Positions 6,747-30,434 of a stretch of 51,462 nucleotides of DNA are shown piece by piece; within the stretch, counting starts at the first letter, position 1; each line of letters starts with the position of its first letter. The notes under the pieces are model-generated. The model made no database searches and had not been told where the DNA came from. It saw nothing but the letters and a program-made list of their open reading frames with translations. The position numbers and the translations under genes were made by a program. Source of the DNA: Sporopachydermia quercuum (taxonomy: Eukaryota); NCBI GenBank assembly GCA_001599295.1, contig BCGN01000006.1:1364001-1415462 (forward strand), read 5' to 3'.

Positions 6747-8937
6747 CTATCTAAGCAAATCGCGGACGGCATTTTCAATACAATCTTTGATTTCTTTATA
6801 CGTAACTATCAAACAATTTTTCTGATCGCGAGATACTAAAAGAATCTTCTCATCTACTCCAGCGTCAAGTTTGTTCAAACACCTAAGAATATGTCCCAGA
6901 TCCACCACAGGTTTTCCGTTCTCATCTACCTGATGAAATAAATGATCACGAAAAAGTTTCACTAAGTATCTATCACCAGTTTCTGACCATAAAGGATCGT
7001 AATCAAATTCAGGGCGCTCATTTACTATTCCTAATTTACACATAAGTCTCACAATTCTGGAATTCTCAAGCTCTGTCATTAATAGCGATTCCAGGTGATC
7101 GCTTGCTGTCTCTACTAGATTGAATTGACCTATAATCTGTGTAGCAATAATCTTGTTGAATTCGGTCATTGTCTTTGGCTCATTGGATTTGTTGTCGATG
7201 ACTAAGAGATACGAAAGAATTTCCTTCACCATGGGCGGGAAACTGGCAGTTATCAAATAGTTGGCGACAGTGTTGGAATCAGCTTTCAGAAGATTGGCTC
7301 TATCTTTTCCACAGTTGAGCAGTTGTAAAACAATCAGTCCAAAATCACAGAAATCTTTCTGTTGCAACTCAGCAATAGAGAGTTTATTTGTGTCGTTGGT
7401 ACTTGAGTCATCCATAGACCAACCTTTCGTTCTGTCTACTAATCCCACCACAGCTTCCTCTTGATCAAATTTCAAAACATCAAATATCCCACAAGAAGAA
7501 AGCTTAATCTTATTGTTAGAAGTTGAAATAATCTTTGAAAGTTCCAAACAACGAGCAGCTAGCTTGCTAGCATGGATTCCAGTGAGTGCTCCCGCAATTT
7601 GAACGATAATGCTCCAAAATAAGTGGTCTGGAACTAGAAATTGTGAATTTAAACCTGGTCTCACCTTTGTAAGGTCTAGTTTCTGTTGTAAAGTTACTGA
7701 TAATGCGTAATAATCGTAAACAAAGATCAATGAGTTATCACCAAACGCTCTCGTGGTAAATGCTTCATAGAGTTTCACTACATTACTATTGTTTACACTT
7801 GCCCACGCTTTAACTGCATGAATTGCTATCTCATCTTTCAAATGAACGTTTTCAATCCTTCGAAGACAATACGGCCGGCCGTCTTTCACTGAAAATGCTT
7901 TATATACTGAAGAACAGTAACCGAAATACGTGTTTGACTTACTGAGTGTCGTATCAAGGGGAACCAGATCAGTGTACATATGAATCAATTCTGGTAACTT
8001 TGAACCAGGAATTGTTTGTAATGTTGCTTCTGATTTTCTTCTCAAAGATTCACCTATATCTTCAGGAAGAAACAATTGTGCTATTGATCTTTCGTATGGC
8101 TCTAGTTTGTCCAAATACGGAGGTTTAGGTGCGTACAAATGATGGTTCAGCAATATCTGAGGTTCATGTCCATAGAATTCACTACCATGATGACTCATTG
8201 GTATAGGCATAATATGGTTCTGTTGTGGTGAGGTCCTAATGAAATCTTCTGAATAGGAAGGGGTCATTGATTGTGTTGAAGCAGACGGTCCCATGTAGCT
8301 GGACATATCTGTCATACTTTGAGCCGGTGTAAATGATGGACTATCAAAATTAAATTTTTTGCTATTACTGTTTTCATTTGCCACAGTGTTGACTGTTAGG
8401 TTGGATTTACTACTAGGAATAAATGATGGAATATTAGCTAGATTGGGGGACATTTTAGACTGTCTGACAGCTAATGAAGGTCCTGGTGATGATGGAGGAG
8501 CAAATGCTGGTGCGGAACCATTTAATCTCATCTTAGGTCTCTCTGCCGTATTGATAGAAGCGGAATTCATTCCTCTACCAAATCCAGAATTGCCGGAAGC
8601 TCCTGAGCTTCCGATTGACGCTCCTGAACCTACTCCTGTACTTGAAGAGCCCCCAGAGGCTAATGTAGATGAAGAAGTTCCAGGTCTTTTCATATGATCG
8701 TGGTTATAAATACAACCTTCGTCAGCGTACTTGCAGTACCCGTATATTTGAATGTTCCGACATGGTATATCCCCCGGTGATACCTGAGGTTTGGTTCCTA
8801 GTAAAGCCAAAGTTAGTATTCGTCCTGCAGCACTATTCCTTCGATTTCAAATACAAAATCTCGTTTCGCATTACAATAGTAAACATACTAAAACTACCAG
8901 TTGACGTCAGAGAGCCGGAATTCGTGTTTGAACCCAT
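6747..8937 (-). CDS. PAN3: PAN2-PAN3 deadenylase subunit Pan3, 699 aa, 2 exons (8937-8889, 8797-6747)
   Basis: CCCH finger (CRNIQIYGYCKY..C.YNH), PAM2-like motifs (LNGSAPAFAP, FNFDSPSFTP), pseudokinase domain and knob (WSETGDRYLVKLFRDHLFHQVD, LNKLDAG). Intron 8888-8798: GTATGT...TACTAAC...TAG, phase 1, joins in frame. The ORF-track start at 8810 is an intronic TTG. Confidence 0.95.
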
Positions 8938-10639
8938 TTTATAATCTCTAAATCAATCTGATAACAAACATCCACAAGGACACATGACGTGATATTCAAT
9001 GTCTCCAGTTGTATCGAGGGCAACAACTATACGGCGATTCAAAGACCCAATCGTTTCTTCATCAATCAAGTAAGATGATTAAGTGATGGATCACTAAAAA
9101 TAGTCACCGAACTTGAACAATACTTGTTACTATAAAAACAACGCAATGATGGAGTACCAATCAGAATAGGTGGGGTTTGAATGGTATTCAATACCAAGAC
9201 AGCGGGGTGCAACACTGTTTCACCAAATTAAAGTTCTCCAGATTGAAGTATTCGTGTTTCTTATGATGCTGTTCTTTGCTTTAAGATGTATAATGAGAGC
9301 AGATTTTATTATATTGTTCCACATCCTCTTGTTTATTTAATCTCCCTGTTAACGAGAAGACAATGTACGATTTCTACAATCAAATTAGGCAGGATTAAGG
9401 GTTACGTGATCTTTAATTATTTAGGAGTAAGACAACACCCGTTACCCTTCTACACTTACGAGTTTGTCTGAGGGCGTTTAGGGGCCTGTTGTAGGGGATA
9501 GGAACAAAAGAGATATCGATGGTGAGAAATAATTTTTATGTAGAAATTTGACATAAAAATTGTAATGAGAGGCTATATCTTAAACTGAACTTTTATTCGC
9601 AAATTTATATGATTGGAATATTGGACCTTTCATCAACAATCCAATTTGTGGAATAGGCAAACAAAAGACTCTCAGTATATACTTAGCATGTGACAGTTAA
9701 AGATGCGTTCGTTGTTCAGACCCACAAAAACACTAAAAAAAAAGAATGCTATCAACTTGGAATAACATCAACATAGAGCTACTTTGTAGATATTTTTCAA
9801 AAATATACGTAACTTATAAAATCTAGANCTCTCCACACATTCAACTCCCGACAAATTTAACACTTTGACAGCTCATTCTATCCCGCAAATCAACCCATAT
9901 ATTTTCCCCAATGTTCCACTCTCCAGACTTCCCCATAATTATCTCTTCTATTCATCTCCATTTTGAGAGAGGGTAACTCTGATGATAACCTCTCACTCCA
10001 GTTTTGTCATATGTCTAGAATGGCACTTACAATAAATAAACAGAAATATTCACCTGTTCATCACTTCAATATATACAGATCAATTGCTAAGAGTAGACTC
10101 ATTTCTCGTTCATATTTCCTGAGCTTTATCACCAAAGAGAAAAGTAGCTGACTAGGAGGAGGAGACACAATAGTTTCAGAGAAAATATCCCAGCTGTCTA
10201 TAAACAGTTCGCCTTAAATACCCGGCATTGTCACTTACTACCAATCCTACAAACACACAAATTATAAATAAATTCATACACTCAGAATCAGGCATATTAT
10301 AAACAATCGTTGTATTTGTCTCAGCAATTGAAAAGCCACACTGCATAGCAGAATCGTGTTACATTATATCGACATTGCCTAAGAAACGTTGACAGAGAGC
10401 TCCGGTGCCAATCCAACTTTTAATCAGTCAGTTCTCGGGCACTACAGGAACAGGAAGTATGGCAGCTGTTTTTTCACAAGCACTATCGTCACCAGCATTA
10501 TCATAACGACAAATATCAAAACTCGAGCAAGCAGAAATTTGTACCAACAAACTCAATAAAGCCCTTCCTTTCTAAAACCACCTTTCTATAAGACCAGAAT
10601 TCTGTTTATATACTTATTCCTACTGAAAGATTTCGTCAG

Positions 10640-12719: not shown

Positions 12720-13500
12720 TAGATAGACAACACTGTAACAACTTTTCAAGATGGAATGGATCTTTTAATTAATGTATAAATGTTTATATACATTGTATTA
12801 TTTGTATTATAAAAAATGATTTAGCATATGGTATATTATGTATTGGATTTATCACAAGGATAAACTATTAAATATGATCATGTTTCGACTCTTACTATGA
12901 TTTTCCCAACATATGACATAAGAGTATACTGGCATAACCATGAGGTGACGGGTTTAATTGATAATACAATAGGAGATGTATAAACAGCAATTGTTCTTCA
13001 AATTCAAAAAAAGAAGCATGTGTTAAGGAAGCCTACCTTGCTCTTTGGTCACCTAGGTAATTTCAGTTACTATTATAATATTATGATGTTAGTATATAAA
13101 AATTCATGAATTGACCGTTAAATACTTGTATGTTAGTTCATTCTTGGAGATAAATAATTTTAGAGTACCCACAAAACTTGAAAGATCCAAAAAATAGNCA
13201 GCTATTATTCCAAGAGAATTACCTCTTAGAACCTACCAGGCATCATTACCGCCGGGCAACTCTGCTGAAAGAAGACAGACTTTTCCATCAACAAAAAGTC
13301 TATACTATGATTTGTCTTCAGTAANTGGAATTGGTGTTTAAAGCATACGGAGTGTTATGTAACTCAGCAGATCTCCTTATTTAAAAGATTCAAACCGGTA
13401 GGTTGAGGATATTATATTCGAATTAAGAGACTTTATATGCTAAGGTGTTTGCAGTGATCTGAGAAATGTGAGTGAACCTATCCTTGATTCATGACAGTTC

Positions 13501-14230: not shown

Positions 14231-17200
14231 ATGTCTGATTTTCAATCGGGATCCAAAAGAAGAAGAAGAGGTAAGTCGCCAGATGGAATACGATGGCATC
14301 AATTAGCAATGACGCTGGAGGAATTCCAAAGGGTCATAACAGAATTTAAAGTAACTAACAATGTATTCAGATAGTGATGAAGGTGACTATAAACGTCCTC
14401 GGTTACCGCAGATAGTGGAAATAACCAAACGGTTGAGCAAAGATATCTGCGAGATTGGCGAGAGAGCCAATTTGAACCAAGTGATTGATTCAATTGAAGA
14501 TGCAAGCAAACCGCTTGCTATTGAACTTGAAAACGAGGCAGGATTTCGACATAAAATTCTTCATTCAATTTTTGCAGTTGTATGTGAACAACCACATAAA
14601 ATTCATTATCTTGCAGCATTAGTTTTTGTTGCTCATGCAAGGAACCCTGTTGTTGGTAAGTACGTGATTGAGTTTCTTCACTCTCGACTTCAGGAGTTGC
14701 TGGATGCTGAAATAGCCACAATTTCGACAGAAAAGAATGTAAATGAAGAGTTAAGGGATAGTTTAAAAGGTACAGGGTTAAGCAATGGAGTACCAGACGA
14801 GCCAGGTATTTGGAACAGGATAAAAGCAACGCTCAGATTTTTTTCAGTATTAAGGCCTCTTATACAAGAGAAATGCTTGAGCAATATTTATCGACAATTA
14901 TTTGAGTTGGCACTTAATCTTCAAGAATTACCCTATTTTGCAAACGAGCGCTGTGCTTTAGCTGAACTACTCTTCTATTCACTTGTTGTGGATCTGCCAT
15001 ATTTGGTAGTAGGAGCCAATGGTTCGGAAGCAGCAGCCAAAGTAGAAGCAAATGAACTCTGGGAACTTGCTAGGAAGTTTCGGTTAGAAGACAGTAAAGG
15101 AGCCGAATTACTACAAAGTTTTCCGGGATCGGAAGACGAAGTTCCATATAAGAACGAGAGTATACTCTCATTAGCATTCAACGCTGTTGAGCGATTCGTC
15201 AATAATGAATGGGAAGGCTTGGAGTTTATTCCTACGTACAATGAAGAATTAAAGCCCATTATTACCGAAATTCTATCCCGAAATGAGTCGGAATGTCAAC
15301 CAGAAGAAGCAGGAATATTGTTTGGCCTTAAAACAGTCCATTTACCCATTTTTGCTCTTCCTTCAGCAGAATCGCTTGTAGAATACGCAACATTAACCCG
15401 CGCCACAGGCAGTGCCGACAGTTTATGGAAAACGCCCAGGTTCAATTTCCGGGTTTATCTCCCTCTTGAAATTGAAACTGTTCCTGCCCCACAGACTTAT
15501 GAATCAGTGATATTTCATGATGTATGTGTAGACATAATAGTTTCTCTNGAATTCAACCGGAAAGAAGCTGCAAGACAATTAATGACACTTGATTTGTTCT
15601 TTTCACCTGGAGTTTTCGCAGCTCCAGGTATTTCCATTGACAAGCTAAAGGAACTTGTTACTCGATCAGAAGAAGCAGAAATGAATTTAGATCCTGAGGA
15701 TGGTGACGAAAACTCCAGCTTATCGAACAGACCTAAAAGAAAGGTCCCCACATGGAAAATTGAAGATTTGGCCGTTGAATCTGTATTAGGATTACTATTT
15801 AATCTACCTCATCAGGCACATCCTCCTGTGTATTATATTGCATTATTGATCGAATGCTGCGAAAAGGCATCACAAGCCATTGCGCCTGTGTTTGGCCGAG
15901 CAATCAGATTTTTCTATGCTAATCTTCCAGCTATGGACTTTGAATCGTCGTATAGGTTTCTTGATTGGTTCTCACTGCAATTATGCAACTTTGGTTTTAC
16001 CTGGAAATGGAAAGAATGGGTTGATGAGTTAGACGAATTACTTAATGAGGACAATGATTTGCCTGAATGGGAAAAAGTGAATAACAAGTTCAATCCAAAA
16101 GCAGTATTTGCCCGAGAATTAATTTGTAAGGAAATTGCTCTTAGTTCCGAGGATGAAATCCGAGTGTCTTTACAATTGGTGCCACAGTTGTTTAGCCTGT
16201 TGGATGTTTCATTACTTGATTCAGGATCAGTAGGGGCTTATGATGTTGAAGTTTATGGAATAAAAGCTTTCGAAGAAGCAAGAGTTGCGCAGGACAGTCT
16301 AGAAAACGATACTAAGTCTGAAAACGAGGTTGATGATACGCCTGAAAACGACTCTAAGAAAGAAACCCAGATCTTAAGCGTTAGAGCATTGTCAGCGTCA
16401 AGTATCCTCTCCGAAAAATCTACCGAGATTCTCCAATTATTCCAATCACAAGCAAACAAAGAAAAAATTCAGGAGACTCTTAAATCAGTTAAGTTGACTT
16501 GGGGTTCGACCGATGAACTCGCTGGCTTACAAATTAACAGAGTTATTCTTGATGTCTTCACTCAAATCATATGTTATTCTGGTAGTAGATCTTTATCACA
16601 TGTTGATCATCTAATCAATAAACACAGGGAGGTTCTATTGACATTAATCAAAGACTGTGAGGAGACGTCAGGTTCACAGTACATAATTTCTGCTGTATTG
16701 AGATTTTGGAATAATAAACCATTTGTTGGGGTTGCTATTGCTCAAATGTTGGTTAATTATGAGATTATCAGCATTGGGTCATTTGCCAAATGGTTGATTG
16801 ATCATGAGAATCATTTAGTAGTTTCAACGGGATATGGATATGATTATTTGTTAAGATGTCTAGATGATTTAGCTGAGAGTTCTTTTGAGCATGAAACCGT
16901 GATAGTAAAACCAAAAGCACAAGGAGAAGGTGAAGCTGATGGAGAAGGTGAAGGTGAAGTGGAGGTTGATGGAACAAATGGAACAAATGGAACAAACGGA
17001 ACAAACGGAACGAAGGGAACGAAGGGAAACTCTGAGAAAGCAGGCGTTGTCATGGCTGATATTGTTAAACAGCTTATTACTAAGTTGCAAGAAACAAAAA
17101 GATCATGGGATGTTTTACCTGTAGGTGAAAAAGATATTGTTAACTGGATCTCTTGGAGATATACTCGATTGATTAGGTCATTACTAAGAAGATATGCGCC

Positions 17201-17327
17201 GGTGTTCGATTCCGAAGAGTCAATTACTAGTTTAGATTCTTTTATGCAAGAAGAAATCCTTGAAGAAGGAGTGAGACTAATTATTCAAGAAGATTTGACT
17301 TTACTCAAAGGAATGAATAGTTATTGA
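14231..17327 (+). CDS. STO1: Nuclear cap-binding complex large subunit (Cbp80/Cbc1), 998 aa, 2 exons (14231-14270, 14371-17327)
   Basis: Exon 1 MSDFQSGSKRRRR, then a GTAAGT...AACTAAC...CAG intron. MIF4G-type motifs EQPHKIHYLAAL, EFNRKEAARQL, TWKIEDLAVE, AIAPVFGRAIRFFY, RFLDWFSLQLCNFGFTWKWKEW. Confidence 0.95.
16971..17024 (+). repeat. Coding 9-bp minisatellite x6 in STO1 (GTN x4, GTK x2)
   Basis: GGAACAAAT x2, GGAACAAAC x2, GGAACGAAG x2. Confidence 0.9.
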
Positions 17328-18001
17328 GAGTATTAAAAGGCTTTGAGAAGTTAGAGAATCAATAATAGCTACTGTAGATAACAGATGAAAAATGGTTGAT
17401 TGTATTATGTACTAATAATTAATAATAATTATAGAAATAAAAAGATGATATTGAGTCCAAGACTATTTGGAGTAGAACCAGTAGATGGATTTATGGAGTC
17501 CAAGTTTACGCTATGATCATTATATCTAGGCGATTCATTGTCTGACATCAAATAATTCATCATACGAACATAATGAATAGCTGAATCGTCAATGCAGTTC
17601 TTATTATTTGTTCTTATCTCTTGTTTTTTTTCTTTTGTCTTTAGATATATAGTTAACTTATTACTCGCTAAAAGGGATTTTCCGTGCTATTCACAATAAA
17701 ATGGCTCCGTTACTTACCTTCTGACTTAATTTGATGTTTGAGAGGAAAGCCTAAAGCGTCTCAGTAAGTCCAAACGCAAATTCGAAGCCTTTCCCAAAAT
17801 CATGGTGAATATTTCTTCCCAGAATTATCTGCATCTGCATAATTATATAGCTGAGCAGACACCAGCGCTTCTTATCGTAAAAGATGAGTCATTCAAATTT
17901 CCCAATACACGAATTCTGGCTAATTAACTAGAACTGTTTCTTAATACTTCTTTCCGTATTTCTGACATTTCCATTTTCCCATTTCCCATTTGTTTACCAA
18001 C

Positions 18002-20473
18002 CTAACCCCAAGTAGTATCCCAAGCACCATCTTCAAATGAAGCAATCAAATTAAATGCAGAATCTAAATTAAAGTCAACATCAAATATAACTTTTTCATT
18101 ATCAATATTGATAGTTAAATCCAAATCGTTAAATACTCCTTTCATTCTATCTCTATCCTTATCCAAATTTTGCCCATTATCATCTTTATTATTTCCATAT
18201 GCGCTTTCTTTACTGTTGTTTTCTTCAGCTACACTGCCCACTCTTTCTATAACAGCCTCACTTAGCTTCCTCATTATTCCACAGCAAATTTTGACGATTT
18301 TGCTGAACTCTTCGCTTTGCTGTAGTATATTTATGCAGGTGTTACATTTCTCTTGTATATCATCAACAGACGCCTTCCTAGCTAGAAATTCACATTTAAA
18401 TATCGAGTAGTTGTTCAATATAGAAGTAATAAATAACGTACTGATACTTAGGATTCTATATGTTAGTTTCTTTTGCTGGGCCAATTGATTAAAAATATCA
18501 ATGATTGTACCAGTTGAGTTATATAGGATGATGTAATCATCAACACTTGGTGTGCAAAACCAAACATTCGGTTTGTGGAGCAATGTAAGCGCTTGATAAT
18601 AAAGTAACGATAAATATAGCTCACAAAAATTTGAACGGTTGCTAATTTTGCTGTGAAATACCAAAGCTTCGTTGTTGATGGCGTCAAGTTTTTGTTTCAT
18701 CCGCTCTCTGCATTGTAGAATGAGAGATTTAAGTGATGAAGAATGAGATTGGGAAGAGGAAGAGGATAGGTTATTTGAGCTTGACGTAACTTTAGAAGTA
18801 GAATTAATTATGGAAGCCGTAGGTGATGTTGGAGAGGTTGTAGGAGAAATGAGATTATTAATATTTAATCTGGATCCAGCGTTTCTATCAAAGCGTATGT
18901 CAGATGTGTGATGGCTATAATTAGTACCTTGCAAAGATCCTCGATATTGAGAATAAGGCTGGGAATGAGTTGGTGGGTTTAATATTGATTCATCTAAAGT
19001 GCCTATCATTCCTGGATCAGTGGGTATGCCTTGCAGTGGCAAATCCGCGCTTGCATCTTGCTTCTCTTTCAACTCACCAACTATCTTCATTAACTCGGTG
19101 TCACTGACCGTATTAGAAAACAATAACTGCTTGATCTCAGAAACCACCCGACAGAACTTAATGTACAATAGAGAGTACTCCTTTGTGTACACTGTTATTT
19201 CTGCCAGCCGCAAGTTATATCCGTCAGGAATGTTGCCAACAAATGCTTTTGAAACTGTGAAGTAACGTGTGGATATTGAATTCTCATCAATTAAATGCGG
19301 TCTTCCTATACATAAACAGATATACCTATCAAGCAAGTAACTGGCCCAAAAGATCCTTCTTCTAACATCAATTTCCATCTGATCATCAGAAGCTGTGATT
19401 TTCTTCTCATCATAATATTTCAGCTTTATAACCATTGAACACAGAATACTTGTGATGTTCCATAGACCAGGGAAGCATGGTCTACATAATGCTATTTGAC
19501 CTAACAATATCAAACTTTGCAATTGATAAGTTAAATCCATTTTATTGAAAAACTTTCTGTTCATTTCTTCGGCAATGTTCAAATAATGATCACGTTTGGT
19601 ACCTAACAGTTTTCCATCGTGCGATTCTAAGTTACTGCATGTCAGCGCTAATACTAAGAATATAGAATAAAGCTCTTGGAAATCTTGTCGGCGATACTCA
19701 GTATCTATATTAGACGACCTTAATGTGTAAACATTGTGCAATCTGATGATGAATTCTTTATAGTCAAGTATGGGAAAGATTGGATATTCTAACTCAAAAT
19801 AGATATCAACCAGTTGAACAGCCTGAGATTTTTCAGGTAATTGACGAAGATAATATCCAAGGAATTCTATTGGGATCATTGAGTGATCTGTATTGTTTGT
19901 CTCATTGCTACTACTAGCATCATCTACTTCTGTTATTTCTTTTTCAAGAGACTTGTACACAGAAGCACCATAACTAGCTATGTTTTCTAATGAGTTGTCA
20001 ACATCTGCAGCATCTGCTATGGAACCGTCGCGATTACTGGCCCTTTCCATACTGGACGTCACTCTTTGCAGATACTGAAATTCTGATTCAACCTCACGAA
20101 GCAATTTTCTCGATGGATTCTTTTGTTTACGTGAAGAGGTTTTGACATTATTTAACGCTACATCATTCACGCAATCAACGGTATCAAACGCATTATCAAT
20201 CAGTTCTTCATGGTTTGAGGAGTCTGCTGTAGTGGGAATCAGCTTATACATATTCTCCAAAACTGTTTTCTGTTTGGTGATAATATCTCGTAATTCTGCA
20301 TTTTCATCTTCCAGCTGAATTACATAATCTCTAGGCAATTCACGGCCAAAAAGTATGTTATCTTGAAGACAGGAAGCATTAGTACTTTCACAGAGCGAAC
20401 ATCGTGGAAAGTTAGCATCGCATTTTCGTTTCCTTCTCTTGCATCTTGTGCAAGCAGCAATTCCTTTGTTCAT
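18002..20473 (-). CDS. Zn(II)2Cys6 transcription factor, Ppr1/UaY-like, with fungal TF middle-homology domain, 823 aa
   Basis: ACTRCKRRKRKCDANFPRCSLC...C followed by a Ppr1-type linker and coiled coil (GRELPRDYVIQLEDE). Also YPIFPILD and RRRIFWASYLLDRYICLCIGRP. Confidence 0.9.
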   Translation of the reverse strand: MNKGIAACTRCKRRKRKCDANFPRCSLCESTNASCLQDNILFGRELPRDYVIQLEDENAELRDIITKQKTVLENMYKLIPTTADSSNHEELIDNAFDTVDCVNDVALNNVKTSSRKQKNPSRKLLREVESEFQYLQRVTSSMERASNRDGSIADAADVDNSLENIASYGASVYKSLEKEITEVDDASSSNETNNTDHSMIPIEFLGYYLRQLPEKSQAVQLVDIYFELEYPIFPILDYKEFIIRLHNVYTLRSSNIDTEYRRQDFQELYSIFLVLALTCSNLESHDGKLLGTKRDHYLNIAEEMNRKFFNKMDLTYQLQSLILLGQIALCRPCFPGLWNITSILCSMVIKLKYYDEKKITASDDQMEIDVRRRIFWASYLLDRYICLCIGRPHLIDENSISTRYFTVSKAFVGNIPDGYNLRLAEITVYTKEYSLLYIKFCRVVSEIKQLLFSNTVSDTELMKIVGELKEKQDASADLPLQGIPTDPGMIGTLDESILNPPTHSQPYSQYRGSLQGTNYSHHTSDIRFDRNAGSRLNINNLISPTTSPTSPTASIINSTSKVTSSSNNLSSSSSQSHSSSLKSLILQCRERMKQKLDAINNEALVFHSKISNRSNFCELYLSLLYYQALTLLHKPNVWFCTPSVDDYIILYNSTGTIIDIFNQLAQQKKLTYRILSISTLFITSILNNYSIFKCEFLARKASVDDIQEKCNTCINILQQSEEFSKIVKICCGIMRKLSEAVIERVGSVAEENNSKESAYGNNKDDNGQNLDKDRDRMKGVFNDLDLTINIDNEKVIFDVDFNLDSAFNLIASFEDGAWDTTWG

Positions 20474-20936
20474 GATATAGTTAGTAAGAACAAATGAAGC
20501 CGCTTATCTTATGGTAGATTTGTCATAGGTAAACGTTAGATAATCACCCGTAAATCCTGGTATATCATAGTTGATCATAGTTCTTTCTTATATCATAACA
20601 GTATCAACCTTAATAATTTAGCGGTATCTTCCTTATTGGATAATTCAGTGCGCCAAATCAGAACTTGTTGCTACTATGATAGGTATTCGGTTCCTCTCTG
20701 TAGATGATGTGAAGCAACTTTATCAACTCAACAAACTATTGCTGCACTTTATGCATAGATGGGCGACATGTGCAATAGGCTTATCATAGCTTACTCAATT
20801 ACAATCGGATCATGATTGTTTACTGGTTGTCGAATGGTTAGCTATAAATCAATAACCAATTTGGAAGTATTTTGCTTAGTATCATCCTCAATCAGTGATT
20901 TCTACTGTCAATCATTTGTTATCAGAAAGACTACAG

Positions 20937-20950
20937 GCGGGAATTCCCGC
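20937..20950. promoter_or_regulatory. Perfect palindrome GCGG-GAATTC-CCGC (CGG-N6-CCG, Zn2Cys6 site) upstream of the TF gene
   Basis: 14-bp GC-rich palindrome in AT-rich intergenic DNA, about 465 bp upstream of the TF ATG. N6 spacing matches Ppr1/UaY. Confidence 0.6.
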
Positions 20951-21357
20951 GATCTTCGATAGATAACGTTAGACTGTTGTAAGGTGGGTCCTTCCTCTAA
21001 CAATCGTAGTAAGCTGACCCTGTAATCGGACAACCATTACAATCATTTAAATCGGAAAGCAATGGAGAAGGGTCTTAAGAGTATAAGGTTAACACAAAAT
21101 GAAATAATTCAAAGGGCTCTAACTATGAATAAGTTCAATCCAAATCTTAAATTAAAAATGATATGAGAAAAGATACCCAATCAACATCAACAATATGATA
21201 GGAAGAATGAAATATAATAATGCTAGTAACGATGTAGAATATCATTAGTGTCTACTATTGAAGGCTTATTGATCACATATTATCTATGAAAGTTCTATTG
21301 CTATTCTATTAAGTAAAAGAAGAAAGATTGTACAAGCATACATCAAATTAATGATGG

Positions 21358-22899
21358 TTATTTATGTAAATATTTCAATTCGAAGTATCGTAATACAGGA
21401 TAGGTAATACCAGAAAAACCAAAACTCAAAAAGACACCTAAATCACCACCATATTCTCCGATTTTCAAAGCAATTGGACCAATGTAGTAAACTTGACACA
21501 TTCCAACCACTGCTCCAGCAACTCCGCAACAGAACGCAAGAGTTGCTGCATATCCATCTGTTAATCCTTTCTTATCATTCCATGATGACCATTCATATTC
21601 ACGAGTTCTTCTAAAGATTAAGGTTTCCTCAACTAGAATTGTACAGAAAATCATAGTCCAATATCCAATCATTGGCAAAAAGTTGTTCAAGTAGTTTGAT
21701 AGTTCGTTTCTACCACCAAGACTACAGCCCAATGAAATTAGGAATCCAATAACTGTCACAAACCATCTTGGTACTTTTGAAAAGAATGAAGTTCCTGCTT
21801 GAACAGCTAATGGTACTGAATAGAAGTTAAGCACATTGTTTGATATCAACGAAAGGAATAAGATAACTAATATGAATTTTCCTCCTCCATTCCATCTAGA
21901 TAATGCTTGATTGAGCAAGCCGCCATTACCAGCATCTGCATAGGCATCTTGGAATNCGGTGTTATTAAGATAAGCAGAAGAAATACAACAAGCTAAAGCA
22001 CCCACGAAACAAGAAGGTAGACAAATACCAATAAATGTCAATCCAAATGTTTTAATTTTTGGTGTGTTTTCTGGGAAGTAAATATAATAATCACTAGCGA
22101 TTGCTGCCCAACCAGCATTAATACCAAATGCAACTCCAAAGAATGATAGCGCATTACCTGCAATTGTTACAGAGTCACCAGAAGAAGGAGTAGTGTTATC
22201 AAAATACTTTCCAGAGCAAATAAATGTCAATAAAAAGAATATTATTGTAGGTAAACACATAACTTTTTCATAGAAATGAACCAGTTTGATACCAACGATA
22301 GCGACAACAACAGAAACAATAGCAACAATGACAATTCCAACTTCTATAGGAACTTTACCGTTAGAGATTGATTTCAATACTTGTCCACCGAAAACCAAGT
22401 TAATAATACTAAAACCTTCAACTGATATGAAATTGAAGATACAAAGAATTTTAGATGGGAACCAGCCAAATGTAATTCTTGAACCTACCATTTGTCTCAA
22501 ACCAGACATTGGTCCATAAATTGAACAATAGGCAGCAACCAATGCACCAGCGACTGCACCAAACATACTCGACACTAATGAGTCTCGTAATGAAAGACCA
22601 AACAATGGTGACCCAAGGAAAAATCCTGAAGCAGAAGTAAGTGAACCAGCACCAGAGCACCAGAGATAAATCATATTTAATTTTGAAAAGTGTTCATCTC
22701 TTTCATTTGCTTCTACTCTTTCAATACCTCTTGCTTCAGCTCCAAGACTATCTAACTTATCTGAGATGACTTTGAAGTGCTTGAAAATTCCAACGGGAGC
22801 TTCCTTTTCCTCGACCGAGATGGAACCAATATCACTTTCCTCGTAGATCTTTGGTTGGGAATGTTTTTCTAATGATGATGACTCCATTGTATTTAACAT
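21358..22899 (-). CDS. NCS1 permease of the purine-cytosine/vitamin B6 (Fcy2/Tpn1) family, Tpn1-like, 513 aa
   Basis: GAEARGIERV, LWCSGAGSLTSASGFFLGSPLFGLSLRDS (closer to Tpn1 than Fcy2, from memory), GLRQMVGSR..FGW, ASDYY, GMCQVYYIGPIA, YPVLRYFE. About 12 hydrophobic segments. Confidence 0.9.
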   Translation of the reverse strand: MLNTMESSSLEKHSQPKIYEESDIGSISVEEKEAPVGIFKHFKVISDKLDSLGAEARGIERVEANERDEHFSKLNMIYLWCSGAGSLTSASGFFLGSPLFGLSLRDSLVSSMFGAVAGALVAAYCSIYGPMSGLRQMVGSRITFGWFPSKILCIFNFISVEGFSIINLVFGGQVLKSISNGKVPIEVGIVIVAIVSVVVAIVGIKLVHFYEKVMCLPTIIFFLLTFICSGKYFDNTTPSSGDSVTIAGNALSFFGVAFGINAGWAAIASDYYIYFPENTPKIKTFGLTFIGICLPSCFVGALACCISSAYLNNTXFQDAYADAGNGGLLNQALSRWNGGGKFILVILFLSLISNNVLNFYSVPLAVQAGTSFFSKVPRWFVTVIGFLISLGCSLGGRNELSNYLNNFLPMIGYWTMIFCTILVEETLIFRRTREYEWSSWNDKKGLTDGYAATLAFCCGVAGAVVGMCQVYYIGPIALKIGEYGGDLGVFLSFGFSGITYPVLRYFELKYLHK

Positions 22900-23273
22900 T
22901 TCGTTGAATTGTTAGAACGAACTGGAGAATAGAAGGACTAATACTAATTTGTTATGAAAGTATTATTGTATCTCTAATGTCATGTATATTATTCATATCA
23001 ACCTTTCAAAATCTAAGCGGCTTCGATGCAATATTTATATAACTTAACCTTTGCATAGTCAAATGCTGATTTAAGAAAGAACTGCTGATATCTTATGTTG
23101 TTCATTATATGTTCAACTGGAAACATTCATCCCCTATTCTTTTTATTGTAAACCTTTCGATATTTATATTTCTTTATCTGAAAAGAAGTAATAAAAAAAT
23201 TAATTAGTCAAAATATAGAAAGAAATGAACAAAGAGAGAAAAGTAAGAAAGAAGTAGACGCATTTAAGACGTT

Positions 23274-23306
23274 GATAAGAAGAAAGGCGGAATTTTCCAC
23301 CTTATC
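23274..23306. promoter_or_regulatory. GATAAG - GCGG-AATTTT-CCAC - CTTATC composite element upstream of the permease
   Basis: GATA sites at 23274-23279 and 23301-23306 flank a one-mismatch CGG-N6-CCG site at 23287-23300. Confidence 0.5.
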
Positions 23307-24120
23307 AGAATAAATCATTCCTTTAAATGGATACCTTGTGAAACTTACGAAGAGGAGATTTCCGTTCCTGTATATGTCAAATAAATGGCAATTTTTATGA
23401 AGATAAAATAGAAAAAATCATAAAGAATCGAACAATTTCAATTTAAACTTGATTATTATTATTATTGCTGATTTATTGGTCGGTTTGGTATCGTGTGAAT
23501 CTCATATAACCTGACTAACGGATAAGACTAGATTGATACTCCATTAATATGCCACATAGGTTTCCAGACATTCGAAAGTCTAAAGGGGGCCATGATTTTT
23601 GATCATTGCAACGTGACGACTTGAACAATAGGCTTATAATCTAGATGAGTAACTCGCCGTTTGTTAGCCTTGTTTATTTCTGTTACATATCTGTTCAAGC
23701 AAGCAATAATTATTTGAGTTTAACAATGGTCTACTCATCGCCTGGGAAGTAAGAAGGTCTTCATTTTTTTCAGCTATCAGTCACGTGCTGTAATTGAAGC
23801 TAGCTTAAGCGTAAGAAAAAAAGGTTTGTTCTAAATAGCTAAGACTCCGAAAGGGAAGAAAGTCTCGTTAGAGAATACGATGCAACAAGTGAATAGGAAA
23901 TAACTGATAAGAAGTGAAATTACAGCTCAAAAGAGAGAAGTTAAGAATTTTATGCATNTAAATTTTAGTTATTAGATCATTCATTTAAACGAGAATCAAA
24001 CTTTTGTATTTAATGAGTTTAGTGAGTCATTATCAATAGGAGGCTCGGGAGTAGTGTGATTTAAGCTTCAACGCTTTTCTCTAAGCTACCTGCCTGATAT
24101 GGAAAATAGTTTGAACCTTA

Positions 24121-24136
24121 AGCGGAACTTTCCGCT
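24121..24136. promoter_or_regulatory. Inverted repeat AGCGG-AACTTT-CCGCT (CGG-N6-CCG) upstream of the amidohydrolase
   Basis: About 250 bp upstream of ATG 24384 and about 90 bp upstream of TATATAAAA (24227-24235). Confidence 0.6.
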
Positions 24137-24383
24137 GAGGATATCCTCTGATTGTCGAAGCAGAAATATTTCTCATCTATCATTGGTTTGATAACGAAAT
24201 AGAACAATAAATAAAAGTTACCTAAATATATAAAAGGTCGTTAGCAGTATAGCGGCAATAGAATAACTATGGTTTGGTTTATGTTGCGGAGTTGTGGGTA
24301 TCATCTTGTTCTTTATCGATTATCATCATTACTCAAGTAAACCAGGTTCTTCAGATAGCTGAATAAACTGAAAACCTGCGATT

Positions 24384-25718
24384 ATGACCCGACTCATATT
24401 GAAAGGAGGAAAAATCCTCACTTTAGATGAGAAAGATACATTGCTTTCATCCGAATATGTTGTAGTTATCAACAAAAAAACTGGAATCATTGAGCAAATT
24501 ACAGAAAGTTACGAGGAAGAAAGTGATGATGAAGTGTTAGACTGCACTGATCAGGTCATTATGCCAGGATTGGTTGACATGCATTTTCACAGTGCAGTTG
24601 CTAGAGGTTGGAATGATCATATGCCTTTGAAAGAATATCTAGAAGAGTGCTGGTATCCTTCTATTAGAGCTTTGGATGAAGAGTCTACCTATTGGGTGGG
24701 GCTAGCTTCTTATTTGGAAGCTATCAAATCAGGGACCACTCATGTTAATGACATGTACAGATTTTTGGGCGGATTAGCAAAAGCTGCCGATAAAATAGGA
24801 ATCCGAGCTGTTTTGTCTAACGATATTGCTCTAGACAAATATAATCTCGATACTCTAGCCGACGCCAAAGAAGCATTCTATAAATACCATAATAGTGCTA
24901 ATGGAAGAGTAAAAGTAAGAATAGGTATCGAATGGTTGCCATTAGCCAACAAAGAATTATTACTCAATGCCCGAGCACTAGCTGATGAATTAAAAACGGG
25001 AATTCATTTACATTTGAATGAAAGTCCAACAGAAGTTGAAATAGTGAAAGGCTATACAGGTGGTAAGGGACCTACAGAATTGGCATACGAGTGTGGTATT
25101 CTAGGTCCTGATTGTGTTGCAGCACATTGTGTTCATTTAAGTGACAACGAGATTAATCTTATGAAACAAACAAACACTTTTATCTCACACAATCCTTCAT
25201 CTAACGCAAAACTAGGTAATGGTATTGCGAGACTTTGTGAATGGCAAAAGAAGGGTATAGTTGTTGGATTGGGCCACGATGCTGCGGAATGCAATAATTC
25301 AAGAGACGTTTTCGAAGTCATGAAGTTCTGCTCTTTGATCCATAGAGCCAAATTTCAAGATCCAACACTTTTACAGCCAAATACTATTCTCAAGATGTGT
25401 TGTGTTAATGGCAACCTTGGTTTGAACTATGACAAATACTCTCAGCCAATCAAAGCAGGTATGGTAAAAGTTGGCTATAAAGCTGATTTAATTACATTAG
25501 ATTTGAAGAACATCAAAATGGTCCCAGTATCAAAGAACGATGTCCTTCAATACTACAGTAATATAGTGTTCTCTTGTAATGGTAGTGTGGTCATGTCATC
25601 AGTTATTGATGGTGCCGTTGTAATGAAGAATAAAAAGTTTGTTAATGTCGACGAGGAAGAAGTCATTAACAAAGCCAACGAAATCTTCAATAGGATCAAA
25701 GATCAAATTCACGCTTAA
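24384..25718 (+). CDS. Metal-dependent amidohydrolase/deaminase (MtaD/SAH-deaminase, AtzA/TrzA family), substrate unknown, 444 aa
   Basis: MPGLVDMHFH (HxH), EAIKSGTT...DMY, IHLHLNES (HxxE), AAHCVHL, SHNPSSNAKLGNG, GLGHD, G.KADLI. No intron. Confidence 0.9.
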   Translation: MTRLILKGGKILTLDEKDTLLSSEYVVVINKKTGIIEQITESYEEESDDEVLDCTDQVIMPGLVDMHFHSAVARGWNDHMPLKEYLEECWYPSIRALDEESTYWVGLASYLEAIKSGTTHVNDMYRFLGGLAKAADKIGIRAVLSNDIALDKYNLDTLADAKEAFYKYHNSANGRVKVRIGIEWLPLANKELLLNARALADELKTGIHLHLNESPTEVEIVKGYTGGKGPTELAYECGILGPDCVAAHCVHLSDNEINLMKQTNTFISHNPSSNAKLGNGIARLCEWQKKGIVVGLGHDAAECNNSRDVFEVMKFCSLIHRAKFQDPTLLQPNTILKMCCVNGNLGLNYDKYSQPIKAGMVKVGYKADLITLDLKNIKMVPVSKNDVLQYYSNIVFSCNGSVVMSSVIDGAVVMKNKKFVNVDEEEVINKANEIFNRIKDQIHA

Positions 25719-26393
25719 GGATGCAACAAGACTGATGGATTATATAAGGAAATATAGGCTAATAGATAGAGGTACTTATTTTATAGCAATTAATTATAAT
25801 CATTATTTGGTATAATAAAATGNGTAAACAGAAAGAGAAGATTGAAAATGGTAGGATTCTTCCCGAGATTGTCTTATTGGTTCTGCTTATCTTGGGACAT
25901 TTATATTGATGTAGATTTAATTGTTTCCGTTATTTGATAAATACTATAATGAGGTTATAATCGGGACTTAGCATGTGTACTGCTTGGGATTAGTAGTTAA
26001 GTCTGTTACAGATATCTATTGTTGCTCCCNTGGTGCAAACGTATGTATCTTCGTTGCAAGAGATTAATTTTATTATTGATTACTTCATCACTTATTATAA
26101 TGGCAAATCACCACAACTATCAGCCATTATCAGAAGGTGACTCGGTGTAAAAGGAAAGGTTTCAGAACATATATTTATATANTATTCTATAATATTATTC
26201 TTAATGAAACTAGCTTATGTCAGCTCGTTATTTCATATTGAATTGCTAAGATGAAATCTAACATGCTTACACAAGCAGNTCATCTTCTGACTCTCCCATG
26301 ATCACTTTCAACTGATCTTCTGAACACCCCGTAGAATTTGTATGAGCTTCCACACACCAAAATAAAGACAGCTCATGTATCAATCTCTCACTG

Positions 26394-26402
26394 TGTGGCA
26401 AT
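26394..26402 (+). promoter_or_regulatory. Possible PACE (Rpn4)-like element upstream of PRE3
   Basis: TGTGGCAAT shares the GTGGCAA core of GGTGGCAAA, about 260 bp upstream of a proteasome gene. Imperfect match. Confidence 0.3.
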
Positions 26403-26660
26403 AGGAAATGTCCGATCAACAACTCTATATCTATCGCAGTTAATCAATTGTCACACTTTTCTTTCTCCGGTGAGTCTCATTGAATGATCTTTTACTTGAG
26501 GTTATAAAAACTACGTTCAATTGACATTTCAATGTTTTCACTCAGAGAGAATTTGTTTACTAATACCGTTCAAGCAAATCAATAGTTAAATTGATAGAAG
26601 TTTCATTCAATCCATTAGGAAGAAATAAAGGTTCATAGGTTAGAATAAAGAAAGATCAGT

Positions 26661-27720
<1,060 letters not shown>

Positions 27721-28664
27721 AAGTGGTTTGAGTCAAGGTAGCAATAATATGATAATTCATCGATAAAAAAAATGATATGTTTCAAGATGGGGTACTGTAG
27801 AAAGGAGAGAAAGAGTGCTCGTAGCCCTGAATAACTACACTATGTTTCCAAAGAAGACAGTCTTTTGAACTACCTTTAGCTCGTGAATTCTCTCCTGTTA
27901 AATCTGAAGAGCCATAGAAATTGTTGAAAATTCAGATCCATGATCGAGTACCAAATTTGTTCATAGATTTCGTAGACTGAAGTTTGATACTCAATGTATG
28001 TTCACTTCAGCTGAAAGTNAAAAAAACTAGAATTGATACTTGTGTTTGCTAGTACTAATCCGTACATAATCCGATGGTAAATTTTCTTGACAATATTTAT
28101 TTCAAACTAACTCTTATTATAATCTTATAATAATACCATGCTGGCACTTCTTCATTCAATGAACGAGATAGAGGACGAAATATTGTCAGTTCGAAGAATA
28201 AACAGAATATTGGGTAAATATAAGGTTAGCAGAAGCAATGTCCAACTGAAACTCCGTGAAAAACTGATAGACTGTGCTTTGTTTACTCTCAGCACCTTAG
28301 AACCCTTTCAAAGAACACACTTTGTGGATACTAACAAGACAATACCTCACACTACTTGAATTTCCCTTTTGCTGAGCATCATGTTTTCCTTTAAAGCGCT
28401 TACAATCACTCCACAGGCATTACATTATTCCTAGTTATTTAACTTTGCATCAAACCATGCATCACGTCTCATCTTGCCAACCTTGTCAGCTTATACTTTT
28501 CAAAATTCTCCTTCAGTGTTACGTGTTTTGCTACACAGAAGACTTCTCTAACTTTGTATCTCATTTTTGCACGACTGATAATTCAACTCCCAGTACTGAA
28601 TGATCTGCTAGATATAGGGTCGAAAGGGTGTGCGGTTTAGATTCTTTGTGTCAGACAGATATAA

Positions 28665-28670
28665 ACGCGT
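28665..28670. promoter_or_regulatory. MCB element (ACGCGT) upstream of MNN11
   Basis: Exact hexamer 145 bp upstream of the ATG. Single copy. Confidence 0.3.
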
Positions 28671-28814
28671 TCAGGTAGACAGCTTCTGGTCCTTTTGTAT
28701 AAATGAATAGTTGTTTATCACTATAATTCATAGCAGCAAAGAGGTAAAACTACTATTCTGCTTATTATAAATTTCAACCACATCATCACTTAAGGAAAAT
28801 CCAGATCATAGAAT

Positions 28815-30434
28815 ATGCACGCTGGGTTACCAAAGCGAGATCACTTCCGCCCAAAGGGCAAACAGGGCAATGGAGCGTTTGTCGCCGGGTTTGCATTGGT
28901 TCGGCGGTTCGAAAGACTGGTTGAATCGCCAAAAAGAAGGAAACAGGTCCTATATATTATGTTGGGAATATTCACGTTTATATGGTTTTTCTTTGCTACA
29001 TCATCATTTGGTAGTGGTTATACTCTCGACTCATCAGGCTCTGTTGATGCTGCTAAAGACAAATCGCTAAGCTTATACAGCAAAAATTCAATATATGCCA
29101 ATATCAAAGTAATGGTTCCAACATTGGAAGATCTACCTTATCTTGGTCAAAAGAAACCTAAGAAACCAGATGTACTGAGTTTAAAATCCATAGATGAGGT
29201 TATTGATTTCCGTACTGGCAAGCCTATCTATACCAAGAAACAATTGGCAGAGGTTCAAAAGAAATCCAAAAAGACGTACGAAGAGGAACTGGAAAAGTTC
29301 AACCAATCTCCAGCAGGTAAAGCATTTCGGAATTCAGAAGTTCTCGATTTGATGGTGTTCTCACCTGATGGAAAACCTATCACCGACCAACAACGTCAAA
29401 CTACTTATAATTTCAATAATGGCTATTCGAAGTCTATGGGAATTCCTCCTGTTGTCATCGTTACAGGACTTGATCGCGAGAGATATAACACAGATCATTT
29501 GAAAAGGGTTTTGGAGAACAGAATGGAGTATGCTGGTAATCTAAAGTATGGTTTGTATACTAGATATCTGCAAGACTATGTCTCTGATCCTTCCTACGAG
29601 ATTAGTCCTGAAAATGATAAAGCATGGGCTAAAGTTGAACTTTTGCGCAATGCTATGCATGCATTCCCTACCAGTAAATATTTCTGGTTTATTGATGAAG
29701 ACGCTTTGATAATGGATATTTCATTTGATGTGGTAAAAAATGTTATTGACCCAAAAGCATTAGATAATCTAATGATCAAAGATGAGCCTTTAACAGAACA
29801 ATCATCAACTATCAAAAGTTACAAGCATATTCTCCCAGAAGATGTGAATTTCATTATAACTAAAGGTGAGATACATCCCGACACATCGTCCTTCATTATT
29901 ACTAATAATGATTATGGAAGATCATTCCTCGAGTTTTGGAATGAACCTTTATTCAAGAAGTACAATGGTTTTCATCTCAAAGAACAGTCTGCTTTATCAC
30001 ATATCTTACAGTGGCATCCTGTGTTGCTTTCTAAGTTTGCTTTCGTTCCTGCAAAAAGCATAGCCAGTAAATATGGTGTTGCTAGTTTAAATGAGAAGAC
30101 TGTCGTTGATGTAAACGACGTTCATTATTCTTCAGGTGATCCCATTGTAGTTCTGAAGGATTGTGAACTAGCTGGTAATTGTTTAGAAGAGTTCCAGAAG
30201 TATTGGAGTAGGCTAAAAACTGGTACTAATGAGGGATCTAAGATAGATAAAGCTGATCTCAAACCAAAGAAAAAAGATGATGCTAAAGCACAAGAAGTAA
30301 AGAAGGAAGAAGCTAAGAAAGGAGGAGGAAAAGAAGAACTCCAGAAAGGCGTGGAAGCGGAAAAATCAAAAAAAATCAAAGAGTCATCCGGTGATGCAGG
30401 TCTACCAGAGAAGAAGAACGCTGCTAATGCTTAG
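28815..30434 (+). CDS. MNN11: GT34 Golgi alpha-1,6-mannosyltransferase subunit, Mnn11-like, 539 aa
   Basis: Type II TM segment near residue 45-63. ENRMEYA...YG, WAKVELLRNAMHAFP..YFWFIDEDALIMD, SALSHILQWHP. Confidence 0.85.
   Translation: MHAGLPKRDHFRPKGKQGNGAFVAGFALVRRFERLVESPKRRKQVLYIMLGIFTFIWFFFATSSFGSGYTLDSSGSVDAAKDKSLSLYSKNSIYANIKVMVPTLEDLPYLGQKKPKKPDVLSLKSIDEVIDFRTGKPIYTKKQLAEVQKKSKKTYEEELEKFNQSPAGKAFRNSEVLDLMVFSPDGKPITDQQRQTTYNFNNGYSKSMGIPPVVIVTGLDRERYNTDHLKRVLENRMEYAGNLKYGLYTRYLQDYVSDPSYEISPENDKAWAKVELLRNAMHAFPTSKYFWFIDEDALIMDISFDVVKNVIDPKALDNLMIKDEPLTEQSSTIKSYKHILPEDVNFIITKGEIHPDTSSFIITNNDYGRSFLEFWNEPLFKKYNGFHLKEQSALSHILQWHPVLLSKFAFVPAKSIASKYGVASLNEKTVVDVNDVHYSSGDPIVVLKDCELAGNCLEEFQKYWSRLKTGTNEGSKIDKADLKPKKKDDAKAQEVKKEEAKKGGGKEELQKGVEAEKSKKIKESSGDAGLPEKKNAANA

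Follow-up and report, generated by a model that had tools for sequence, protein, structure and literature searches.

The 51,462-nt stretch of the Sporopachydermia quercuum genome analyzed here (contig BCGN01000006.1; hereafter the window, to which all positions refer) carries a compact group of three genes, which encode a Zn2Cys6 regulator, a permease of the NCS1 family and a metal-dependent amidohydrolase (Table 1). A first-pass annotation of the window had proposed that these genes are intronless, that the amidohydrolase gene is transcribed divergently, and that the group lies between STO1 and PRE3. Three uninterrupted open reading frames (ORFs) with identical coordinates were found, Pfam confirmed their families, and a STO1-like MIF4G protein and a proteasome beta-subunit exon are encoded on either side. 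The permease and amidohydrolase genes are divergent and 1,484 bp apart, and the regulator gene is located downstream of the permease gene on the same strand. The window contains 33 single N bases, including those at 21956, 23958 and 25823, of which one falls in the permease ORF and one in the divergent promoter; the N at 21956 accounts for a single X in the permease protein.

Table 1 Features of the three-gene cluster and its flanks in the window.
Feature	Position	Strand	Details
Left flank, STO1-like MIF4G protein	14361-17327		
Zn2Cys6 regulator gene	18002-20473	-	823 aa; Pfam Zn_clus and Fungal_trans
Promoter of regulator gene	20474-21357		CGGGAATTCCCG palindrome at 20938-20949; GATAAG at 20503 and 20780
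NCS1 permease gene	21358-22899	-	513 aa; Pfam Transp_cyt_pur (PF02133)
Divergent promoter common to permease and amidohydrolase genes	22900-24383		CGGAATTTTCCA at 23288-23299; CGGAACTTTCCG at 24123-24134
GATAAG copies in divergent promoter	23274, 23301, 23521, 23906		23274 and 23301 inverted, around the 23288 site
Amidohydrolase gene	24384-25718	+	444 aa; Pfam Amidohydro_1
Right flank, proteasome beta-subunit exon	27310-27720		

The amidohydrolase, referred to below as the enzyme, matches Amidohydro_1 with 159 bits against a cut-off of 25. In an alignment of 21 sequences from yeasts, rotifers and bacteria, which has a mean column identity of 67%, the residues H67, H69, H208, H210, E213, H248 and D299 are invariant. 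We take them to be the HxH after strand 1, the His after strand 5 within HxxE, the His after strand 6 and the Asp after strand 8. This is the residue set of the mononuclear deaminase-type amidohydrolases, the group of the cytosine, guanine and 5'-methylthioadenosine (MTA) deaminases and the triazine hydrolases. Judged by these residues, the protein is predicted to be a complete metal-dependent hydrolase of the deaminase type, with its metal-binding and catalytic residues intact.

Curated models did not extend this assignment to a particular reaction. The top NCBIfam model, NF004701 of the N-ethylammeline chlorohydrolase family, gave 309.7 bits against a cut-off of 609; scores below the cut-off were also obtained for the models of 5'-deoxyadenosine deaminase (275.6 against 522), TRZ/ATZ enzymes (NF006549, 220 against 540), 8-oxoguanine deaminase (167 against 532), MTA/S-adenosylhomocysteine (SAH) deaminase (NF012037, 159.3 against 779) and guanine deaminase (105 against 375). 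No cytosine-deaminase model was among the best 25 of the 56 NCBIfam families matched. The first-pass naming of an MtaD/AtzA-family enzyme could therefore not be sustained, as neither the MtaD nor the TRZ/ATZ cut-off is reached. With the MTA/SAH deaminase group (4f0r, Tm0936 1p1m and AtzA 4v1x) the enzyme shares the fold family and the HxH, H, HxxE, H and D residues; it differs in that its closest solved relative, the MTA/SAH deaminase 4f0r, is matched with only 151 bits, in that all equivalog cut-offs are missed, and in its gene neighborhood. Furthermore, the Glu that follows the WP motif of 4f0r, presumably a ribose-binding residue, stands opposite a gap in the enzyme.

A protein search with the enzyme returned 2,069 matches, and the following statements concern the best 120 of them. 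The named eukaryotes are Brettanomyces nanus (69% identity), Ogataea philodendri (58%) and three bdelloid rotifers (53-55%); three further proteins, 63-70% identical, fall with the yeasts. The remaining matches range from 51 to 58% identity; every name among them is bacterial, and the majority are nameless metagenome proteins. Likewise, the three nearest clusters in the Atlas are 90-100% bacterial. A genome scan matched 629 stretches, 411 of which encode relatives, and from these we kept 79 bacterial loci (L001-L079), mostly from Actinomycetota, with some from Rhizobiaceae, Acetobacteraceae and Cohnella. The description of the deaminase as an orphan thus does not hold, given its hundreds of close bacterial orthologues.

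In a tree of 90 enzyme sequences, 77 of them bacterial, calculated with free topology and a quick method, all six yeast proteins fall into a single clade with a Shimodaira-Hasegawa-like approximate likelihood ratio (SH-aLRT) support of 99. The clade arises from a long stem (0.48 plus 0.62) and lies within successive sets of 21, 28, 59 and 70 sequences (support 97, 98, 95 and 96), which are otherwise bacterial save for the three rotifer sequences. The nearest relatives are bacterial and the presence in recipients is patchy, with hundreds of bacteria standing against a handful of yeasts and rotifers, a pattern characteristic of horizontally acquired genes. The enzyme is very probably of bacterial origin, and we infer both the direction of transfer and a single origin of the yeast genes.

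The gene is physically integrated in the yeast genome and is not a contamination, since its composition and codon usage are yeast-like, yeast genes lie on both sides, and spanning contigs were found in two runs. More specifically, its GC content of 0.375, its third-position GC (GC3) of 0.326 and its codon usage resemble those of the neighboring yeast genes, and positions 16000-29000 are spanned by one 29.5-kb contig in each of the two runs without any difference, although both runs are possibly the source of the window DNA itself. The gene is fully adapted to yeast composition. It does not appear among the bacterial transfers that Roach and Borneman (2020, PMC7052964) name for Brettanomyces in section 9 and Table 6 of their paper, where the text speaks of twelve orthogroups and the table has ten.

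The rotifers that carry a bacterial-type amidohydrolase are Adineta steineri, A. ricciae and Didymodactylos carnosus (P0010, P0011 and P0027), and their proteins fall in the same unresolved set of 21 tree sequences as the yeast enzymes. One 711-aa relative (P0006), considered as a possible fusion protein, is a bacterial-type tandem duplicate. A second hit is present in 27 of the 79 bacterial loci. In several loci a tandem second copy from the same amidohydrolase subfamily is 49-56% identical to the yeast protein (L006 at 7357-8655, with L044, L059, L041, L024 and L054 listed alongside), and other loci hold distant paralogues with 20-24% identity to it.

The bacterial orthologues reside in a characteristic gene neighborhood. 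We ran Pfam on 66 neighboring ORFs from 14 loci and searched the derived profiles in the six-frame ORFs of the full set. At distances of up to 6 kb from the orthologue, TenA (thiaminase II) occurs in 56 of the 79 loci, a Zn alcohol dehydrogenase in 41, a glucose-methanol-choline (GMC) oxidoreductase and Amidohydro_2 in 38 each, an ATP-binding cassette (ABC) ATPase in 37, a ThiY/NMT1-like binding protein and an ABC permease in 33 each, an aldehyde dehydrogenase in 32 and NCS1 in 2. TenA or a ThiY-like protein is present in 63/79, and the two dehydrogenases mostly abut the enzyme gene, with median gaps of 30-41 bp. LysR or GntR regulators are also found. This cluster of TenA, a ThiY-like ABC importer, the amidohydrolase, GMC, aldehyde and alcohol dehydrogenases and Amidohydro_2 is widespread, mostly in Actinomycetota.

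A second set of 80 bacterial-type metagenome loci, found by a scan with a related protein (P0005), gave a similar picture: among the 30 loci of at least 8 kb, TenA occurs in 20 and NCS1 in 8, and NCS1 in 12 of the 80 overall. As a control, five genomes with 28.5 Mb in total contained 10 TenA matches, and half of these (5/10) lie inside the loci described here. The TenA beside the Pararhizobium enzyme has its matches among solved thiaminase II structures, yeast THI20 being one of them, and has retained the QDY, PC and E..FW motifs, which we take to hold its catalytic residues.

Around the 12 bacterial sequences nearest to the yeasts, TenA and a ThiY-like protein are each found in 10 of the 12 loci, and a luciferase-like monooxygenase in 11. 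The one such monooxygenase that was scanned, from Curtobacterium (L008), is RutA-like with 284 bits against a cut-off of 498, and the gene order at this locus is NCS1, enzyme, RutA-like monooxygenase. Rhizobium L052 encodes a RutD-like hydrolase (207 against 238), and its neighbor L053 an M20 deacylase (724 bits on PRK08596). A role of the enzyme as a formylaminopyrimidine deformylase was rejected on account of this deacylase, already present in the locus, and of the deaminase-type residues. Taken together, the neighborhood would fit a bacterial route in which a thiamine-derived pyrimidine is imported and converted by TenA to hydroxymethylpyrimidine (HMP), followed by oxidation and decarboxylation or Rut-like ring opening, with the enzyme stripping the ring amino group. 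Next to the Cohnella cluster (L062), group II intron domains and an IS110-family transposase (8802-8967 and 12817-12889) hint that this locus is mobile.

The known scheme for the salvage of thiamine pyrimidines in Bacillus proceeds through ThiXYZ, YlmB and TenA (PMC3020362). The bacterial orthologue loci resemble this system in holding TenA, ThiY-like binding proteins and ABC components, and L053 additionally an M20 deacylase. They differ by the addition of the deaminase, the oxidoreductases, Amidohydro_2 and the RutA/RutD-like genes, and by the lack of thiamine pyrophosphate (TPP) riboswitches in the 11 loci searched. They look like breakdown rather than salvage. Of all these components, the yeast took the deaminase alone.

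The permease matches PF02133 with 54.4 bits (cut-off 23.5) over residues 71-473, which places it in NCS1; against the bacterial model TIGR00800 it reaches 184.8 bits, below the cut-off of 353.1. Identity amounts to 61-63% with B. nanus FOA43_000265 and two other yeast proteins (P0124 and P0126), to 53% with a Nadsonia protein and to 42-47% with TPN1-annotated proteins, which bears out the earlier description of the permease as Tpn1-like. An unrooted quick-method tree of 33 sequences places the four cluster permeases in one clade (support 100), whose stem measures 0.88. The four group with the TPN1-like proteins of Geotrichum, Magnusiomyces, Nadsonia and Trichomonascus (support 100), apart from the TPN1-like proteins of Kuraishia and Pachysolen, so that the permease does not fall with the TPN1 of related yeasts. 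The separate clade is restricted to yeasts that have the cluster.

By its sequence, the permease can be assigned to the Fcy/Tpn1 branch of NCS1, and its origin to the fungi. Since the cluster permeases form their own long-stemmed clade apart from Kuraishia and Pachysolen, it is probably a diverged paralogue and not a standard TPN1 orthologue. The likeness to Saccharomyces cerevisiae Tpn1, the vitamin B6 permease, and to the Fcy2 family consists in the NCS1 fold and the identity given above, the difference in the separate clade. Substrates known for Tpn1-type carriers are methyl- or hydroxymethyl-substituted six-membered N-heterocycles. Vitamin B6 itself, an idea that arose from the Tpn1 likeness, was discarded as a substrate, because the ring of B6 vitamers bears no amino group on which a deaminase could act. 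NCS1 carriers, namely PLUTO and the predicted CytX, transport HMP and also its toxic analogue oxy-HMP according to PMC5874261.

In the regulator, residues 4-85 align with the DNA-binding domain of Ppr1 (1pyi), including the zinc cluster, the linker and the dimerization region, with an E-value of 1.4e-9, while other zinc-cluster structures (Lac9, Hap1 and Gal4) gave E >= 0.02. The earlier label "Ppr1-like" is thereby substantiated, as the nearest named relatives are also annotated Ppr1. A HMMER scan of 1.84 billion representative proteins yielded 1,233 relatives, of which only 3 clusters have E <= 1e-30; the orthogroup is tiny. A word-based search returned five proteins, with B. nanus FOA43_000005 at the top (31% identity), and a protein of the second yeast discussed below (P0245) is likewise 31% identical and collinear over most of its length.

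The named members of the next-best clusters (Pichia kluyveri and Wickerhamiella sorbophila) are the Ppr1-annotated ones. Their clusters score 114 bits at 24-29% identity, whereas true Ppr1 orthologues (P0246 and P0262) score 268-288 bits, and for this reason we rejected the regulator as the PPR1 orthologue itself. It resembles S. cerevisiae Ppr1 in its DNA-binding region and in the 6-bp spacing of the candidate sites, and differs from it in the low identity to Ppr1-annotated proteins and the tiny orthogroup. Its sequence is that of a diverged Ppr1-family paralogue, a putative pathway-specific activator.

Ppr1 itself binds CGG-N6-CCG, and the Ppr1-type domain, with its 1pyi-like zinc cluster and linker, would fit the 6-bp spacing of candidate sites present in all three promoters. 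The sequence CGG-N6-CC(G/A), which the first-pass annotation had reported upstream of all three genes, indeed occurs once within 261-465 bp of each start codon: CGGGAATTCCCG lies 465 bp upstream of the regulator ATG, CGGAATTTTCCA 389 bp upstream of the permease ATG and CGGAACTTTCCG 261 bp upstream of the enzyme ATG. The window holds 9 distinct sites, or 13 strand-wise matches against 5.3 expected, a number attained in 0 of 100 shuffles. Outside long ORFs there are 3 sites, and all three lie in the cluster intergenic DNA, which makes up 2,368 bp of 25,020 non-coding (binomial P = 0.00085).

GATAAG sites, also reported earlier, are concentrated in the same intergenic DNA (6 of 16 non-coding copies, P = 0.0025), but are not enriched over the whole window (36 against 32.7 expected). 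One inverted pair brackets the CGG site at 23288. Both P values are nominal, because the motif was defined after the sequence was seen. Control of the permease and enzyme genes by the regulator appears about evenly balanced between being true and false.

The association of permease and enzyme genes recurs in other yeasts. In B. nanus the two have consecutive locus tags (FOA43_000265 and FOA43_000266). In a second yeast, the clusters of the regulator, the permease and the enzyme all have longest contigs of 19273, 16695 and 7730, and in a third, the permease and enzyme clusters both show 48062; this suggests that permease and enzyme share one contig in both yeasts, and in the second yeast the regulator as well. 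Permease and enzyme are thus adjacent or contig-sharing in 4/4 yeasts where both were found, and the trio is together in 2 of the 3 yeasts with an assignable regulator homologue. Furthermore, where the two trees share species, the branching of the enzymes is compatible with that of the permeases. Permease and enzyme are likely to work together. In the literature searched, no account of the yeast cluster was found.

As a whole, we propose that the cluster is a small catabolic or scavenging module, a reading to which we assign a probability of about 0.45. The diverged Tpn1/Fcy-type permease would import an amino-substituted pyrimidine, most likely a vitamin-B1-derived 4-amino-2-methylpyrimidine such as HMP, its aminomethyl form or a close derivative. 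The horizontally acquired, metal-dependent deaminase would then hydrolyze the ring amino group to release ammonia, and the Ppr1-type factor would activate the permease gene, the enzyme gene and its own gene through the CGG-N6-CC(G/A) sites, with GATA-factor nitrogen control of the cluster probable.

The substrate list of the first-pass annotation, which ranged over amino-substituted purines, pyrimidines, pyridines, pterins and triazines, is narrowed by the bacterial gene context: since the orthologue adjoins TenA, ThiY-like importers and RutA-like genes, a vitamin-B1-type aminopyrimidine is favored, and by this analogy a thiamine-type aminopyrimidine is put forward tentatively as the substrate. 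Co-regulation of the genes and a role in nitrogen scavenging rather than detoxification would follow from the same scheme. The sensor-importer-enzyme module suggested earlier gains from the permease-enzyme adjacency in B. nanus and the equal contig sizes in two more yeasts, and loses from the separate position of the B. nanus regulator. A further proposal, more doubtful than the module itself, is that the enzyme would be the first identified deaminase of HMP or an HMP derivative, the entry step of a widespread bacterial breakdown route, which a few yeasts captured horizontally and around which they then assembled a eukaryotic regulon from a duplicated Tpn1-type permease and a likewise duplicated Ppr1-type pyrimidine sensor.

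Several observations weigh against this interpretation or parts of it. The sole B. nanus regulator homologue found (FOA43_000005) lies about 260 tags away from the pair on the same 4.26-Mb contig, linkage in the second and third yeasts is suggested by equal contig sizes and not by DNA, and no O. philodendri permease orthologue was among the best 120 permease matches. The degenerate motif was chosen in the first-pass annotation after the sequence had been viewed. Regarding the origin of the enzyme, an approximately unbiased (AU) test did not reject all 77 bacterial sequences as one clade (p 0.078, log-likelihood difference 3.48), and the outgroup branches are very long and the root uncertain, on which the nesting of the yeast clade in bacteria hangs; the direction of transfer is for these reasons based mainly on the distribution of the enzyme.

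The link to thiamine comes from gene neighbors only, and an Rfam scan of 11 bacterial loci detected no TPP riboswitch. At 7 positions that are otherwise invariant, every one of the six yeast enzymes departs from the 12 aligned bacterial proteins; W83K and the loss of R229 are among these changes, and specificity may have shifted after the transfer. Finally, deamination of HMP would yield oxy-HMP, which served as a toxic analogue in PMC5874261. The true substrate may therefore be an HMP derivative, unless the product is exported or metabolized further.

The yeast-specific replacements at these 7 positions and the long stem of the yeast enzyme clade would also be expected if specificity had changed after transfer toward an amino-heterocycle unrelated to vitamin B1, such as a cytosine analogue, a pterin, an s-triazine or an amino-pyridine, and the top NCBIfam model, that of the N-ethylammeline chlorohydrolase family, points in the same direction. 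However, the cut-off of this model is missed by a wide margin, the 67% mean column identity of the 21-sequence alignment suggests a conserved function, and the permease paired with the enzyme belongs to the Tpn1 type with its substituted six-membered N-heterocycles, so that we regard such a substrate as improbable.

Rather unlikely as well is a purine or nucleoside module, in which the enzyme would deaminate adenine, guanine, 8-oxoguanine, isoguanine or 5'-methylthioadenosine-type compounds brought in by a purine-cytosine-type permease. The closest solved relative is an MTA/SAH deaminase, one source gives this name to many of the bacterial orthologues, and the permease family includes purine-cytosine permeases. 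Yet the MTA/SAH, 8-oxoguanine and guanine deaminase models all score far under their cut-offs, the presumed ribose-binding Glu of 4f0r is gapped, and the bacterial neighbors are TenA, ThiY-like and RutA-like genes, with no purine-metabolism family among the 66 neighboring ORFs scanned.

The same neighbors lend themselves to a different use of the vitamin, namely that permease and enzyme form a salvage module, not a catabolic one, through which the yeast would regain the vitamin-B1 pyrimidine from a damaged or blocked form or rid itself of a toxic analogue (toxopyrimidine- or bacimethrin-like), to the benefit of vitamin supply or self-protection instead of nitrogen supply. The bacterial loci do combine the enzyme with known salvage parts, the ThiY-like importer and TenA being widespread and the M20 deacylase present in L053, and the movement of HMP and its toxic analogue by NCS1 carriers, as described in PMC5874261, would suit it. 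What makes such a role unlikely is that a deaminase, which the residues indicate, cannot hydrolytically restore the 4-amino group that the vitamin requires. In addition, no TPP riboswitch was found in the 11 loci searched, the LysR/GntR regulators, oxidoreductases, decarboxylase-type Amidohydro_2 and RutA/RutD-like genes of the bacterial loci are typical of breakdown, and GATAAG sites are concentrated in the yeast cluster promoters.

The distant regulator homologue in B. nanus and the late definition of the motif could also mean that there is no functional unit at all, and that three unrelated genes adjoin by chance with coincidental motif sites. Against this stand the permease-enzyme association in all four yeasts in which both were found, the permease clade confined to those yeasts, the bacteria that likewise pair the enzyme with NCS1 permeases (2/79 and 12/80 loci), and the distribution of the CGG-N6-CC(G/A) sites, which together render a chance assembly very improbable.

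The proposed module has a parallel in codBA of Escherichia coli, which encodes the cytosine permease CodB and the cytosine deaminase CodA. Both systems would combine an NCS1 permease with a deaminase of the amidohydrolase superfamily that takes the ring amino group off an aminopyrimidine to give ammonia, and the likeness extends to the Curtobacterium locus with its NCS1, enzyme and RutA-like monooxygenase genes. Unlike codBA, the enzyme of the window matched no cytosine-deaminase model among the best 25 families, and the yeast pair consists of a fungal permease and a bacterial enzyme, encoded divergently and provided with a eukaryotic regulator of its own.

Fungal clusters of regulator, permease and enzyme genes are of a known kind, as are bacterial genes in yeasts. 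The present cluster appears to be a mosaic, with a bacterial enzyme next to paralogues of a fungal permease and of a Ppr1-type regulator, and as such would constitute a compact case of a foreign gene wired into eukaryotic control. The enzyme family has hundreds of bacterial members, and our literature searches found neither an assigned reaction nor a description of a cluster or genes for the breakdown of the thiamine pyrimidine, the process to which the bacterial neighbors point. The permease and enzyme of the yeast offer a simple two-gene system for probing the reaction. If the enzyme does act as an HMP-type deaminase, the yeast would harvest nitrogen from degraded vitamin B1 by way of a mosaic cluster. 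The yeasts concerned are relatives of Brettanomyces, which are of importance in fermentation, where competition for nutrients could be affected if the cluster is linked to vitamin B1 chemistry.

Beyond the cluster, the window continues to the left with the STO1-like gene and genes for malate synthase, PAN3 and a capping enzyme, and to the right with the proteasome beta-subunit exon, a MNN10-like gene and others. A scan of the window with Rfam gave no RNA family match. One ORF at 4679-6316 on the minus strand (545 aa) is without a Pfam family at E <= 1e-5. At the other end, three paralogous TauD/TfdA-family dioxygenases of 398-401 aa are encoded within 10.5 kb on the plus strand (40048-41253, 42074-43270 and 49328-50533), and among them lies a major facilitator superfamily (MFS) transporter gene at 43603-45174 on the minus strand. 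Four CGG-N6-CC(G/A) sites fall within two ORFs of this group. The TauD/TfdA paralogues and the MFS transporter may represent a cluster for sulfonate utilization.

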